Shown piece by piece: positions 10,997 through 39,741 of a stretch of DNA of 64,000 bases. The translations under genes and the position numbers were made by a program. The stretch spans positions 609 through 64,608 of the forward strand of contig JBNKPX010000004.1 in the NCBI GenBank assembly GCA_050295575.1. Direction: 5' to 3'. The first letter of the stretch is position 1. Every line of letters starts with the position of its first letter. This DNA is from Gammaproteobacteria bacterium (lineage in GTDB: Bacteria > Pseudomonadota > Gammaproteobacteria > GCA-001735895). Below the pieces are notes generated by a model. It ran no database searches, had not been told where the DNA came from, and worked only from the letters and a program-made list of their open reading frames with translations.

Positions 10997-11097
10997 AAAG
11001 GGGTCTATCTGAAATAATGATTGATGCGGAGCATAACATCCGTAGCTCTGAAAAAATTTTAATTTTAACAAAGAAGGTTTGGTTTCGTCTTATAGTG

Positions 11098-11412
11098 ATG
11101 CAGGAATTACTGTATATTTTTATTCTGCTTGGCGTGCTCTGGTTGTGGCGAGACAGCAGTAATGCGCGTGAAAAGGCAACCTCTGCAGCACGAGCTGCCT
11201 GCAAGCAGATCAATGCACAGTTTCTGGACGAAACTGTCATGATGGTAAAGCTTCGTTTATGTCGCAGGAATACAGGAACTATGGCATTATGCAGATTGTA
11301 TAACTTTGATTTCACGCTGGATGGGTCACAACGTAGGTCTGGTGTTATACGAATGAAGGCGCAGATCATTGAAGAGCTATTGCTCGATATAGATCAGGCT
11401 ACCGCATTATAA
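11098..11412 (+). CDS. DUF3301-like small membrane protein
   Basis: MQELLYIFILLGVLWLWRDSSNAREKA is a TM helix followed by a basic region. I chose the ATG at 11098. Confidence 0.55.
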   Translation: MQELLYIFILLGVLWLWRDSSNAREKATSAARAACKQINAQFLDETVMMVKLRLCRRNTGTMALCRLYNFDFTLDGSQRRSGVIRMKAQIIEELLLDIDQATAL

Positions 11413-29955: not shown

Positions 29956-29974
29956 CACCCTACGATAGTAATTT

Positions 29975-30000
29975 AAAACCCCATTCGTGGGGTTTTTTTT
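29975..30000 (+). terminator. Rho-independent terminator after sqr
   Basis: AAAACCCCA-TTCG-TGGGGTTTT stem-loop ending in a T8 run. Confidence 0.85.
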
Positions 30001-30072
30001 ACTCGAGATATTTAAGTTGTCATTTGAAGCAGTTTGCTTCATTATTTGTAAAAGCTTTTGCTGTGATAAGGC

Positions 30073-30101
30073 TTGACAACAGGCGATTTTTAACTTTCAA
30101 T
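30073..30101 (+). promoter_or_regulatory. Candidate sigma70 promoter for the small PEP-CTERM gene
   Basis: TTGACA, a 17-nt spacer, then TTCAAT, about 65 nt upstream of the ATG at 30167. Confidence 0.35.
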
Positions 30102-30166
30102 GTTCTGGTTGCTATCCAGGTGCCTTCTGGATTGGATTTATCAATACAATATAACGGATTAACATT

Positions 30167-30379
30167 ATGAATAGATTATATACATCACTGTGCATTTTCC
30201 TTATCGGGCTCCAGAATTCGGCCTTTGCTTCTTCAGATTTACCTGGTGGCTCCTGTGGGATGCCAGGTGCCCCAGCGTGCCCCCCATCAACTCCGGTTCC
30301 AGAACCATCTATGCTTTGGCTCATGATTGCCGGTATTGCCAGTCTTGGTGTGGTGCGTTATTTAAAAAGCAGAAGGTGA
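30167..30379 (+). CDS. Very small (70 aa) PEP-CTERM sorting-signal protein
   Basis: Signal peptide ending AFA-SS and a short Pro/Cys-rich core. The C-terminal VPEPSMLWLMIAGIASLGVVRYLKSRR has the PEP motif, a TM helix and a basic tail. Confidence 0.7.
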   Translation: MNRLYTSLCIFLIGLQNSAFASSDLPGGSCGMPGAPACPPSTPVPEPSMLWLMIAGIASLGVVRYLKSRR

Positions 30380-30406
30380 CTGGTTGTTTTGTGTATTAGT
30401 CAGGTG

Positions 30407-30514
30407 CCCTTATACGAAAAATATCCTGAAGATAGTGGGTATAGATAAGCTGTATGATTAATACCTGCTGCAGGTAATTTAAAAAAGCCCCTTTTACGGG
30501 GCTTTTTTTATTTT
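30407..30514 (+). pseudogene. Decayed duplicate of the sqr 3' end plus its terminator
   Basis: cccttatacgaaaaatatcctgaagatagtgggtatagataagctgtatgattaa...aagcccc-ttttac-ggggcttttttt aligns with 29899-30000. It differs by point changes and a 2-nt deletion that breaks the reading frame. Confidence 0.75.
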
Positions 30515-30578
30515 CGATTTCATGCACTTGGTGATTGATTATTTACTTGTCTGATGTAGAATACCCGACCTGATTTAC

Positions 30579-30655
30579 AGGCGCGTAGCTCAGTTGGTTA
30601 GAGCACCACCTTGACATGGTGGGGGTCGGTGGTTCGAATCCACTCGCGCCTACCA
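30579..30655 (+). tRNA. tRNA-Val (GAC)
   Basis: Hand-folded: acceptor AGGCGCG/CGCGCCT, D arm GCTC-AGTTGGTTA-GAGC, anticodon loop TTGACAT, T arm GGTGG-TTCGAAT-CCACT, encoded ACCA. Confidence 0.95.
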
Positions 30656-30656
30656 A

Positions 30657-30787
30657 ATTATATTTTTGGTAGGAAGAGTTGGTGAGAACTTGTTCGACAA
30701 ATTTGCCGGGAGCAGATTTGATCGCACGCAGTGCGCCCCGAAGGGGTGAGGGCATGGAGCCCGAAATAATCCACTCGCGCCTACCAA
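30657..30787 (+). other. Structured element flanked by a 20-bp repeat of the tRNA-Val 3' end (candidate ncRNA or miniature integrative element)
   Basis: aatccactcgcgcctaccaa occurs at 30637-30656 and again at 30768-30787. Four consecutive hairpins lie between them (30698-30720, 30723-30735, 36-46, 50-62 of the 307xx block). They are homologous to the element at tRNA-Pro. Confidence 0.5.
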
Positions 30788-30880
30788 TATATTTGGTAGT
30801 ACTTCCCCGATTTTAATTTAATTGTTTTTTTTGATTAACACGTGGCCTTTGGTAGGGGTCACCACTGAAACAGGATCAAT

Positions 30881-38170: not shown

Positions 38171-38247
<77 letters not shown>

Positions 38248-38250
38248 TTT

Positions 38251-38417
38251 TTAAACTCTCGTTATTGTAGAAGTCTCGTTGTAGATCGAAGCATAGGCGA
38301 GAGGTTTTGAACCGATAGAGGTTCATAAAATCGCCGGGAGCGATTTTAAACAGCCACAGGCTGGCCCGAAGGGCGGAGGGCAGGAGCCCGCAGTAAATCC
38401 TCTCGCCCCGACCATTT
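38251..38417 (+). other. Structured element flanked by a 23-bp repeat of the tRNA-Pro 3' end (homologue of the tRNA-Val element)
   Basis: aaatcctctcgccccgaccattt occurs at 38228-38250 and at 38395-38417. Hairpins lie at 38309-38324, 38327-38347, 38351-38363, 38364-38374 and 38378-38389. Confidence 0.5.
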
Positions 38418-38676
38418 AAAACCGGCTTAGAAGAAGGAACTTCTAAACTGCTGGTCTGCATTAAGAATGGTTATAGATGTTATTCTGCTTTTTATTTAAC
38501 ATAATTCTTATTAGCATTACCTGCCTAAGCATATTGATAATCAATCATGATAAGACTTTTAGGTTTTAGTCCGGGCTTCAAGGGCATTTATAGGGTTAAA
38601 AACGAGGGTTAAGGGTGCTTCCTGAAATCATCTACAACAAATACCAGTCCTTTATTAGCCATTCAATAGAATAACT

Positions 38677-39741
38677 ATGACGAAATCCATACATATTATT
38701 GGCAGCCGTTCGCTGGGCGGAGCCGAAAGTTTTTATATGCGCCTGATCAAGGCGTTACAACAATCAGGTGATCAAAGCATCGCGATTAATCGTCCACATA
38801 GCCTGGTTGCGCAAGAGCTTCCAGACAGTGTGCCTCAATATCATTGCAAGATGAGAAGCCAGTGGGATTTTTTATCACGTATGGCTATCAGTAAGGTCAT
38901 TAAGCAGGAGAAGCCAGATATCGTACAAACCTATATGACTCGGGCAACGATACTTACCCATGTCCCATCGGGTAAAGGTCCTGTACATATCGCCAGGTTG
39001 GGCGGCTATTACAATATCAACAGGTTTCAGCACGCTCATGCCTGGGTTGGTAATACTAAAGGGATTTGTGATTATCTCATTGAGTACGGATTACCTTCGA
39101 ATAAGGTTTTTTATATCGGTAATTTTGTTGGTGAAGTAAAGTCACCAGAGCAGAGTAAAATCAGCTCGCTTCGGCAACAATATGGCATTGATGCTGATGC
39201 ATTGGTGATTTTTGCATTGGGGAGATTGGTATATAAAAAAGGATTTGATACGCTGATTCATGCTTTTGACCAATTACCCAGAGAGATTAATACTCGTCCA
39301 TTACATCTAATCATTGCTGGTGATGGGCCGATGTCTGATGATTTACTCTCAAAAACTCAAGAATTAACAAGTAGAGATCGAATTCACTGGGCTGGGTGGC
39401 AGACTGATGCGAGTCATTATTTTCATACGGCAGATTTGTTTGTCTGTCCGTCTCGTGAAGAGCCGCTAGGGAATGTTATTCTCGAAGGTTGGGCTTATGG
39501 TAAGGCTGTGGTCTCAACTAGCAGTATGGGTGGACAGGAGTTAATTACCGATAATCAGGATGGTTTATTAGTCCCCATTGATCATTCGGCTGAGATGGCA
39601 ACAGCAATAAAAAGGGTGCTAGAGGATGATTCGTTTCGAGAGTCTATAGCTCAGCAAGGAACTGCTAGAGTAAATACTGAATTTACTCAGCAAGTCATCG
39701 TGTCACAATATCAGGATTTATATCAACAGTTACTGGGGTAA
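38677..39741 (+). CDS. Glycosyltransferase (GT4 / GT-B fold)
   Basis: The E-x7-E region EPLGNVILEGWAYGKAVVSTSSMGGQELI, and 354 aa. Confidence 0.85.
   Translation: MTKSIHIIGSRSLGGAESFYMRLIKALQQSGDQSIAINRPHSLVAQELPDSVPQYHCKMRSQWDFLSRMAISKVIKQEKPDIVQTYMTRATILTHVPSGKGPVHIARLGGYYNINRFQHAHAWVGNTKGICDYLIEYGLPSNKVFYIGNFVGEVKSPEQSKISSLRQQYGIDADALVIFALGRLVYKKGFDTLIHAFDQLPREINTRPLHLIIAGDGPMSDDLLSKTQELTSRDRIHWAGWQTDASHYFHTADLFVCPSREEPLGNVILEGWAYGKAVVSTSSMGGQELITDNQDGLLVPIDHSAEMATAIKRVLEDDSFRESIAQQGTARVNTEFTQQVIVSQYQDLYQQLLG

Follow-up and report, generated by a model that had tools for sequence, protein, structure and literature searches.

The DNA analysed here, called the window below, is a stretch of 64,000 nucleotides (nt) from an uncultured gammaproteobacterium (assembly GCA_050295575.1, contig JBNKPX010000004.1, positions 609 to 64,608, forward strand). 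Two of its tRNA genes, tRNA-Val(GAC) and tRNA-Pro(GGG), are each followed on the same strand by an element of 130-170 nt, whose last 20-23 nt repeat exactly the 3' end of its host tRNA and which very probably is a tRNA-linked repeat (TLR; Rfam RtT, E. coli rttR). An original prediction, made from the letters alone, had described four back-to-back hairpins at both loci, with shared loops and with stems that differ and still pair, and this description holds. The features of the two loci, named after the tRNA and numbered by window position, are the following.

30579-30655, + strand: tRNA-Val(GAC), intact, T-loop TTCGAAT (ARAGORN; Rfam tRNA, 69.7 bits)
30656-30787, + strand: Val TLR/RtT-like element, complete, beginning with the tRNA trailer and ending with the 3'-end copy (Rfam RtT at 30662-30785, 20.9 bits, E=0.1)
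30666-30673, + strand: TTGGTAGG, inverted copy of the tRNA 3' end CCTACCAA and 5' strand of the closing helix P1 (inverted repeats I1 and I4)
30685-30689, + strand: GAGAAC, as far as which the Val inverted copy continues in degenerate form
30697-30767, + strand: four-hairpin cassette ACAAATTTG...CCCGAAAT, between TTCG and AAT of a pseudo T-loop (covariance model R1, 78.6 bits, 30696-30771)
30698-30720, + strand: hairpin H1, 9 bp (caaatttgc/gcagatttg), loop CGGGA, GGA at 30709-30711
30723-30735, + strand: hairpin H2, cgcac-gca-gtgcg
30736-30746, + strand: hairpin H3, cccc-GAA-gggg
30750-30762, + strand: hairpin H4, gggc-atgga-gccc, GGA at 30756-30758
30768-30799, + strand: copy of tRNA-Val positions 58-76 plus 1 nt (30768-30787), then trailer hairpin arm ttggtag

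38171-38247, + strand: tRNA-Pro(GGG), intact, T-loop TTCAAAT (ARAGORN; Rfam tRNA)
38248-38417, + strand: Pro TLR/RtT-like element, whole unit (Rfam RtT at 38284-38414, 27.6 bits, E=0.0022)
38296-38313, + strand: GGCGAGAGGTTTTGAACC, inverted copy (17/18) of tRNA-Pro 38223-38240, giving the 5' strands of P1 (38296-38304) and of helix P2 (inverted repeats I1 and I2)
38309-38324, + strand: P2 hairpin gaacc-gataga-ggttc, its 3' strand being the duplicated 5' strand of the T-stem plus half of the T-loop (GAGGTTCA, 38318-38325)
38325-38394, + strand: four-hairpin cassette ATAAAATCG...CGCAGT inside a pseudo T-loop TTCA|AAT (R1, 81.8 bits, 38324-38398)
38327-38347, + strand: hairpin H1, aaaatcgc-CGGGA-gcgatttt, GGA at 38337-38339
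38351-38363, + strand: hairpin H2, cagcc-aca-ggctg
38364-38374, + strand: hairpin H3, gccc-GAA-gggc, followed by a junction GGA (38375-38377)
38378-38389, + strand: hairpin H4, gggc-AGGA-gccc, GGA at 38383-38385
38395-38417, + strand: tRNA-Pro 3' end (positions 57/58-76 and 3 nt of the trailer) copied exactly over 23 nt, forming the 3' strand of P1

At the Val locus, the 20-mer aatccactcgcgcctaccaa at 30637-30656, which is the tRNA 3' end plus one trailer base, recurs at 30768-30787, with 111 nt between the copies and a small ctaccaa/ttggtag hairpin after each. Both copies of the 20-bp repeat first reported are thus confirmed, but the real repeat is longer: it extends to 25 nt at 92% identity, and the trailer hairpin arm ATAT(T)TTTGGTAG is repeated as well (30660-72 and 30787-99). 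The Pro repeat is exact over 23 nt (38228-38250 and 38395-38417), and GAGGTTCA is duplicated too, 5' of the cassette. These exact copies bear out the tRNA linkage and the terminal mimic of the acceptor and T-arm. No third copy of the Val 20-mer or the Pro 23-mer was found within the 64 kb window, nor in shuffles. The motif CCCGAAGGGNNRAGG, shared by the two elements, is present only at these two loci of the window (0.06 expected by chance), and the only protein-coding potential seen in the elements consists of spurious antisense open reading frames (ORFs) overlapping the tRNAs. The Pro element folds into a closed multi-branch structure with a minimum free energy of -56.9 kcal/mol (z = -5.3 against shuffles); for the Val element the figures are -48.4 kcal/mol and z = -3.4.

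The anatomy of the elements differs from an insert placed as a single unit between two repeats, as had been supposed. Each is a pseudo-copy of the T-arm and 3' end of the tRNA, the pseudo T-loop of which is split between G57 and A58 by a cassette of 71-78 nt, and the downstream copy starts where this separable cassette interrupts the loop. Taking the cassette out of the Val locus restores gTTCG|AATCCACTCGCGCCTACCA. In a survey of other genomes, described below, the cassette sits between (G)GTTCG and AATCC, i.e. at T-loop positions 57|58 of the pseudo-copy, in 26/26 tRNA-linked copies among the matches listed. The tRNA 3'-end copy by which TLRs are defined would then be the part of the pseudo-copy distal to the cassette.

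On the 5' side of the pseudo-copy lies the reverse complement of tRNA positions ~45-72, so that the overall order is direct (the tRNA), inverted, and direct with the cassette. The inverted copy is clear at the Pro locus (GGCGAGAGGTTTTGAACC, z=7.5, 0/300 shuffles) and in another locus of the survey (L089, 25 nt, z=10). At the Val locus only TTGGTAGG is clean, and weak alone (z=2.7), the remainder being degenerate; inverted arms homologous to the Val arm are significant in other TLRs. The 5' strands of P1 and P2 come from this copy, so that the sequence of P1 depends on which tRNA is involved (Tyr, Pro, Val, Glu, Ser). The direct-inverted-direct order could fit a mini tandem inversion duplication, with a switch of template at the trailer hairpin and at the palindromic TTCGAA. 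A retroelement-like origin, with copying from position 58 and an upstream complement resembling a primer-binding site, was set aside, since the duplicated segment continues beyond CCA and includes genomic trailer sequence.

Two details of the inverted arms were recorded besides. The inverted T-loop copy reads GA(T/G)GAGAAC, not the expected GATTCGAAC, in TLRs of different tRNAs and orders, with the same TC-to-GA change each time (window 30683-30689; L010, L020, L027, L064 and L111; the E. coli RtT consensus). Either the ancestry of the arm is common across tRNAs, or a perfect palindrome is selected against. The left arm of the Val element, AGTTGGTGAGA (30677-30687), matches the D-loop region of tRNA-Val, AGTTGGTTAGA (30592-30602), at 10/11 positions, which may be chance or the trace of a once fuller tRNA copy.

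Variants of this layout were found elsewhere. The tRNA array of Lacimicrobium (L064) contains two full-length tRNA-Glu pseudogenes with the cassette in the T-loop. In Alteromonadaceae a mirror image occurs, with seven tandem 166-bp units 5' of tRNA-Ser, each made of the first 22 nt of the tRNA plus a cassette in the D-loop. The tRNA-Val-thrS position is occupied by a TLR also in a more distant genome (L088), where the 3' copy follows the tRNA-Val variant of L088 itself. The tRNA-Asn of the window, with the T-loop TTCGAGC lacking GAA, has no element.

Direct repeats of a tRNA 3' end starting in the T-loop, exact over 20-23 bp, are what tRNA-targeting integrative elements leave behind, and the original prediction had invoked insertion of the tyrosine-integrase type. 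On that account the elements would be miniature integrative elements or remnants of genomic islands, with the repeats as attL and attR. A precise one-copy empty site in relatives and a variable gene content 3' of tRNA-Pro (both described below) also speak for it, although a one-copy empty site is equally expected from deletion between the repeats or from allelic replacement. Against it, no integrase gene, fragment or remnant was seen in or near the elements, in the window, at the syntenic loci or at 119 other loci among the matches listed, and the window holds no third bounding repeat. The insert measures only 110-145 nt. The duplication comprises an inverted as well as a direct copy and spans the 5' side of the cassette (GAGGTTCA), which site-specific recombination does not yield, and the left edge of the copy is set by the cassette at G57|A58. 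Moreover, the host genes that carry the cassette together with their own 3' ends include at least 10 tRNA species plus 5S rRNA, all of which a single integrase could not target; the cassette also enters non-tRNA repeats at G|AA, and the variable genes at tRNA-Pro lie outside the repeats. We consider an integrase origin very improbable.

The motif common to the Val and Pro loci was scanned across 185,579 species genomes, giving at least 119 stretches. A covariance model, R1, with 76 positions and four helices, was trained on 90 unique cassette copies, and base pairs were counted in 112 distinct copies aligned to the model. The counts on these 112 copies are, like those on loci and taxa below, among the matches listed. 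A plain MAFFT alignment with RNAalifold recovered H1 and H3 only, with H2 and H4 misaligned, so the alignment guided by the covariance model was used. Paired cells amounted to 93.6% versus 75.3% in shuffles, and double changes were found at 21/23 pairs. The covariation score was 0.446 versus 0.124 in shuffles, none of 500 shuffles reaching 0.446; an alignment fitted to the model favours structure, but the margin is nonetheless large. When the 3' partners were slid by 1-3 columns, the score was at most 0.06. The compensatory changes between the Val and Pro stems are real and are upheld across these copies. The strong covariation indicates that the structure of the cassette is under selection, and bears out the selection on a folded strand that had been proposed from two copies.

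While the stems vary, several unpaired positions are fixed. The H1 loop reads NNGGAG, with GGA in 112/112 copies, a GGA that lay within the search motif (19 of the copies depart from the search pattern). The GGA of the H4 loop, outside the search motif, is present in 104/112. The GAA loop of H3 and the tail GRRUAA are fixed as well.

A compact, conserved multi-helix fold with invariant unpaired bases could also recall a small self-cleaving ribozyme class linked to tRNAs, another suggestion of the original prediction. The Rfam scan, run permissively (E<=10), gave no ribozyme match beyond chance (best Pistol, 15 bits, E = 2.5), and the invariant bases lie in apical loops and short linkers, not in a helical-junction core. 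The E. coli RrB transcript, a relative discussed below, was probed in vitro with Pb2+ and RNase III, and the passages of PMC8144298 on this probing mention no site-specific self-cleavage. A ribozyme is, in our opinion, hardly credible here.

The search with R1 returned only the two known copies in the window (78.6 and 81.8 bits). The matches listed from the motif scan are nearly all from Gammaproteobacteria, and include Thioalkalivibrio, many Enterobacteriaceae, Microbulbifer, Idiomarina, Rheinheimera, Lacimicrobium, Frateuria, Steroidobacteraceae, Methylococcales and Thiotrichales. One Thioalkalivibrio assembly alone has at least 14 matches. The few GC-rich matches outside Gammaproteobacteria, in non-repeat contexts, look like chance. 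The cassette is present in 1274/5426 complete E. coli genomes, in 1-3 copies each, and no RefSeq or other annotated feature lies beneath the E. coli copies among the matches listed. A single match was found in 2.9 million viral contigs.

Several known families were recovered by these comparisons. RtT (RF00391, gathering score 45 bits), the tyrT-operon repeat of E. coli (gene rttR), aligns over its full length (model positions 1-130 of 130) at both window loci, with the same layout of P1, P2, core and 3' end. Reciprocally, R1 matches E. coli K-12 rttR and its sister repeats, with 24.1, 22.3 and 17.5 bits. As in rttR of the tyrT-tyrV operon, the window elements lie directly 3' of a tRNA on the same strand and end in the tRNA 3' end including CCA. 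P1 pairs with an upstream complement, a GAGAAC...GTTC hairpin is present, and the multi-hairpin core contains CCCGAAGGG. As to tandem repetition, the window has one unit per tRNA, a close relative (L127) two units at tRNA-Pro, and Enterobacter (L065) three. In the latter, three canonical RtT above the gathering score, plus one RtT with a nested cassette, follow two tRNA-Ser genes. The window elements differ from rttR in scoring below the gathering score, in their non-enterobacterial host and in the host tRNAs, Val(GAC) and Pro(GGG). Their cassettes are intact (79-82 bits with R1, with GGA loops and a 9-bp H1), unlike those of the E. coli tRNA-linked TLRs, which are degenerate (24 bits).

TLRs were described in 1978 (Egan & Landy 1978, Rudd 1999 and Bosl & Kersten 1991, as cited in PMC8144298). 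According to the passages of Stenum et al. 2021 (PMC8144298) that treat them, E. coli K-12 has 22 of them, distributed over ten loci within tRNA or rRNA operons; they are defined by 18-19 bp at the 3' end that exactly repeat the 3' end of the gene preceding them; a role in amino-acid starvation was claimed at first, a claim since withdrawn, and the repeats have "no known function". With their exact 3'-end copies of 20 bp (Val) and 23 bp (Pro), the window elements fall under this definition. The Rfam scan, the R1 search and this literature place them in the TLR/RtT family, and they are divergent new members of a known family, not the novel class proposed initially.

A stronger relative of the window cassettes is found behind E. 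coli rRNA operons. R1 matches the rrnB T1-T2 terminator spacer, which encodes the small RNA (sRNA) RrB, with 70.4 bits (E=3e-18; L136, 338-415), followed by a copy of the 5S 3' end. The sRNAs RrA, RrB and RrF of the rrnA, rrnB and rrnD T1-T2 regions (Stenum et al. 2021, in passages of PMC8144298) have the same four-hairpin cassette, GACAAATCCGCCGGGAGCGGATTTGAAC...GGGCAGGACGCCC. RrB shares with the window elements the GGA in the loops of H1 and H4, the subsequent copy of the 3' end of the upstream stable RNA, and the insertion at G|AA. It differs in its host gene, 5S rRNA, in an H3 loop that is GGA and not GAA, and in its position between two terminators, whereas the window elements follow tRNAs without flanking terminators.

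The third relative is AaHKsRNA22 (RF02902, gathering score 39.8 bits), the consensus of which is the same cassette, ACAAAACGC-loop-GCGTTTTG-AAC-H2-CCCCAAAGGGG-CGAG-H4-GAGTA. Enterobacterial cassette copies score 32-39 bits with RF02902, up to 39.4. This intergenic sRNA was detected by RNA-seq in Aggregatibacter actinomycetemcomitans (PMC5909427), and the searched passages of that paper do not tie it to tRNA-linked repeats. Besides RtT, and RF02902 for the enterobacterial copies, no other Rfam family was found. In the long forms of the ERIC repeat the insert is the cassette, at GAGCG|AACGC; the host is here ERIC, and there is no tRNA 3'-end copy. Long ERIC (IRU) forms with an internal insert of about 70 bp are said to have been reported by Wilson and Sharp in 2006.

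The cassette behaves like a discrete, separable insertion unit. At E. coli yeiS-preT three alleles were observed: without ERIC, with ERIC, and with ERIC plus a 78-nt cassette at GAGCG|AACGC without target duplication. Insertions are clean, of 76-78 nt, without target duplication or terminal inverted repeats, and a preceding G and a following AA are all that is conserved at their flanks. The contexts are the tRNA T-loop and D-loop, the 5S 3' region, ERIC, boxC-like repeats, and the H3 loop of the cassette itself, nested copies having been found within an H3-like loop (CCCG|AAGGG) of Enterobacter L065 and in a close relative of the window genome. In Microbulbifer there are cassette-only tandem arrays. 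The host repeat around many Thioalkalivibrio copies has a boxC-like appearance (ccctctccc...gggggtgaggg). In seven Thioalkalivibrio loci (L003, L021, L059, L062, L063, L066, L106), a further palindromic element interrupts the 5' strand of H1 (ACAA|ggtgccgaaagggccggggacagatttgcaaatctgtccccggggcg|CCGGGAGC).

Miniature elements of the IS200/IS605 type likewise insert 3' of a short, specific sequence, duplicate no target and have no terminal inverted repeats. PATE and REP/RAYT elements show, in addition to these properties, a strand-specific short target, end hairpins, nesting and tandem arrays. It is possible, though we hold it to be rather unlikely, that the cassette is selfish repeat DNA and nothing more: a non-autonomous miniature mobile element of this kind, moving as folded single-stranded DNA and inserting 3' of YG in G|AA loops. 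In that case a transposase encoded at another locus would recognise the hairpins and the GGA loops, and the RNA would be an inactive by-product of the location in a tRNA operon, which we find no more probable. The clean insertions with hairpins near both ends, the many contexts and the nesting, the Microbulbifer arrays and the multiplicity in Thioalkalivibrio all agree with it, as do the minority of E. coli genomes that carry the cassette and the empty, truncated and decayed alleles of close relatives; the strand bias next to tRNA genes (see below) fits insertion into the lagging-strand template.

Other observations fit it less well. In the neighbourhoods examined for proteins, which were the fetched stretches of 8 kb or shorter, no Y1 (HUH) transposase adjoins the copies and no cognate enzyme of this type was identified. 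No protein recurs near 112 loci; the sole cluster found across taxa is a PAS-GGDEF-EAL protein, the rest being translated repeats. Nor was there a gene flanked by split cassette halves, as in an autonomous parent, but only whole variant cassettes. The near absence from viral contigs also counts against it. The interior is far more conserved than PATE or REP elements require: H2, H3 and the junctions are conserved class-wide, beyond the needs of end recognition. Finally, the RrB version binds the regulator CsrA specifically, according to passages of PMC8144298. A selfish element is in fact compatible with the explanation preferred below, and differs from it only on whether the RNA has an activity.

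Ten syntenic contigs (L121-L130), each encoding an identical IHF-alpha, allowed us to compare the state of both loci in close relatives.

tRNA-Val locus, filled: window, L123
tRNA-Val locus, cleanly empty, with the same downstream flank: L122, L124, L126, L129, L130
tRNA-Val locus, decayed: L127
tRNA-Val locus, other spacers: L121, L125, L128
tRNA-Pro locus, filled: window, L123, L121
tRNA-Pro locus, truncated inside H1 by deletion: L122, L124, L126, L129, L130
tRNA-Pro locus, tandemly duplicated with two nested insertions: L127
tRNA-Pro locus, empty: L125, L128

The check for empty sites in orthologous tRNA loci, which the original prediction had proposed, therefore gave clean empty sites among close relatives. 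The sequence 3' of the Val copy is the orthologue of that which follows the bare tRNA in the empty-site relatives, where the native trailer hairpin already pairs with the tRNA 3' end. Absent, truncated, decayed and duplicated alleles in near-identical genomes show that the TLR is dispensable and turns over fast. In the second Pro TLR unit of L127 (~11000-11100), the pseudo T-loop is split at GAGGT|TCA by a different three-hairpin insert of ~70 nt, gggtgaaaaccctccctggttttcac...caaaaatgatccggtcatttttg, which means that this target region also serves a small cassette of a second kind. L125 and L128 have another hairpin repeat, cacgaaggacacgaagca...tgctccgtgtccttcgtg, directly after the tRNA-Val trailer hairpin, in place of the TLR.

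Turning to transcription, a promoter-like site lies 5' of tRNA-Val, and no terminator was found between tRNA and element at either the Val or the Pro locus. Cassettes within 300 nt of a tRNA were on the strand of the tRNA in 38/38 cases among the matches listed, although the TTCGAA core of the target is palindromic. From the lack of a terminator and this co-orientation we infer co-transcription. (Orientation relative to neighbouring ORFs in tandem gene pairs, 25 sense versus 8 antisense, came from a crude ORF caller with tandem arrays recounted, and is not relied on.) The sequences suggest that the TLRs are probably co-transcribed with the tRNA and processed. The element, having no promoter or terminator of its own, would be transcribed together with the tRNA; the transcript would close into helix P1, plus P2 at the Pro locus, through the inverted copy; and, as the element ends in a tRNA 3' end with trailer, the enzymes of tRNA 3' maturation would release a discrete RNA of ~130-170 nt. 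Such a release would parallel that of rtT RNA and RrB in E. coli. Expression of relatives has been reported, for rtT RNA in E. coli and for RtT in Thioalkalivibrio and Actinobacillus.

Alternatively, the element could serve the tRNA operon alone, in processing, insulation or stabilisation: it would guide RNase E, RNase P or an exonuclease, or protect or terminate the transcript, and would have no partner in trans. Elements next to tRNA or rRNA genes are always on the sense strand inside the transcription unit, they alternate with tRNA genes in the L064 array, and they end in a tRNA 3' end with an AU-rich trailer, the native trailer itself pairing with the tRNA 3' end in empty-site relatives. 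Close relatives, however, lack the element at the same tRNAs, 82/120 cassette copies among the matches listed are far from any tRNA, and a purely structural role leaves the conserved loop sequences unexplained. We judge such a role improbable.

The conserved loops point to CsrA. In passages of PMC8144298, CsrA is the top protein partner pulled down with RrB, with a dissociation constant of about 100 nM, and mutation of three GGA motifs, two of them loop GGAs, abolishes the binding; binding of CsrA and Hfq is established only for RrB. By position in the rrnB spacer sequence, the loop GGAs of RrB are those of H1 and H4. In the window, the corresponding GGAs are at 30709 (H1) and 30756 (H4) for Val, and at 38337 (H1) and 38383 (H4) for Pro, plus 38375 in the junction. 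By analogy, the Val and Pro elements may bind CsrA, which is the best functional lead, though a tentative one. A core of the same design as RrA, RrB and RrF would most likely exert a modest titration of CsrA, coupled to the transcription of stable RNA. At the DNA level, the cassette would be a miniature insertion unit landing at G|AA in hairpin loops without target duplication, and the whole TLR could be gained, lost, truncated and tandemly duplicated.

Taken together, TLR identity, processing with the tRNA, a CsrA-type activity and the status of dispensable repeat DNA make up the explanation that we moderately favour. Several points weigh against it. The RtT scores at the window loci, 27.6 (Pro) and 20.9 bits (Val), are below the gathering score of 45, and RF02902 gave no match to the window copies at E<=10. 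The excess of G-U over A-C pairs, 49 versus 30, is only modest. The strand bias could arise from strand-specific insertion into single-stranded DNA, tRNA genes being co-oriented with replication. No csrA gene lies in the window. Passages of PMC8144298 report that the 19 tRNA-linked TLRs of E. coli are predicted not to bind CsrA, and that deletion or overexpression of RrA, RrB and RrF has modest phenotypes only. Last, the absence, H1 truncation or decay of the element in very close relatives argues against an important function.

A wider proposal, speculative and in our estimate rather doubtful, is that the TLR core is a free-standing mobile cassette, which inserts strand-specifically at G|AA without target duplication and deposits paired CsrA-type GGA hairpins wherever it is transcribed. 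If this is true, TLR/RtT, RrA/RrB/RrF, the Aggregatibacter sRNA22 and the long ERIC forms are one element in four guises, and a mobile binding module for a global regulator. A unifying mobile four-hairpin cassette with CsrA-type loops appears to be absent from the reachable literature. A fragment with the rrnB T1-T2 terminators, including the cassette, is presumably present in many common expression vectors; if so, these vectors would transcribe a CsrA-binding module upon read-through of T1. For the window, the result is mostly a re-identification, of elements which routine annotation would miss because they score below the Rfam threshold. It shows that TLRs with an intact core exist well outside Enterobacterales, 3' of many tRNA species. 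The conserved GGA loops offer a concrete, testable function for the family, and near-identical genomes provide filled, empty and truncated natural alleles as ready controls.

Some observations concern the surroundings of the elements. The gene content beyond the Pro TLR (window 38418-39741) differs among the near-identical genomes L121-L130, so that the 3' flank of tRNA-Pro is a hotspot of variation; the variants are asnB with a glycosyltransferase, an AraC regulator with a sarcosine-oxidase operon, a glycosyltransferase alone, or nothing. None of these genes falls within the TLR repeats, and no integrase was observed there. On the 5' side of tRNA-Val, the spacer is 926 nt long in the window and L123, versus 288-525 nt in the other syntenic relatives, i.e. 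~600 nt of extra DNA (window 29956-30560). It contains an ORF at 30167-30379 (+ strand) of 70 amino acids, the N-terminus of which resembles a signal peptide and which has a PEP-CTERM sorting motif (Pfam PF07589, 25.4 bits). In Leclercia and Enterobacter, the Rfam family Ysr251, a Yersinia antisense sRNA, matches above threshold at ~0.3-2.3 kb from tRNA-Ser TLRs (L027, 3017-3210; L116, 2326-2519; L065, 1677-1870), and is probably unrelated to them.

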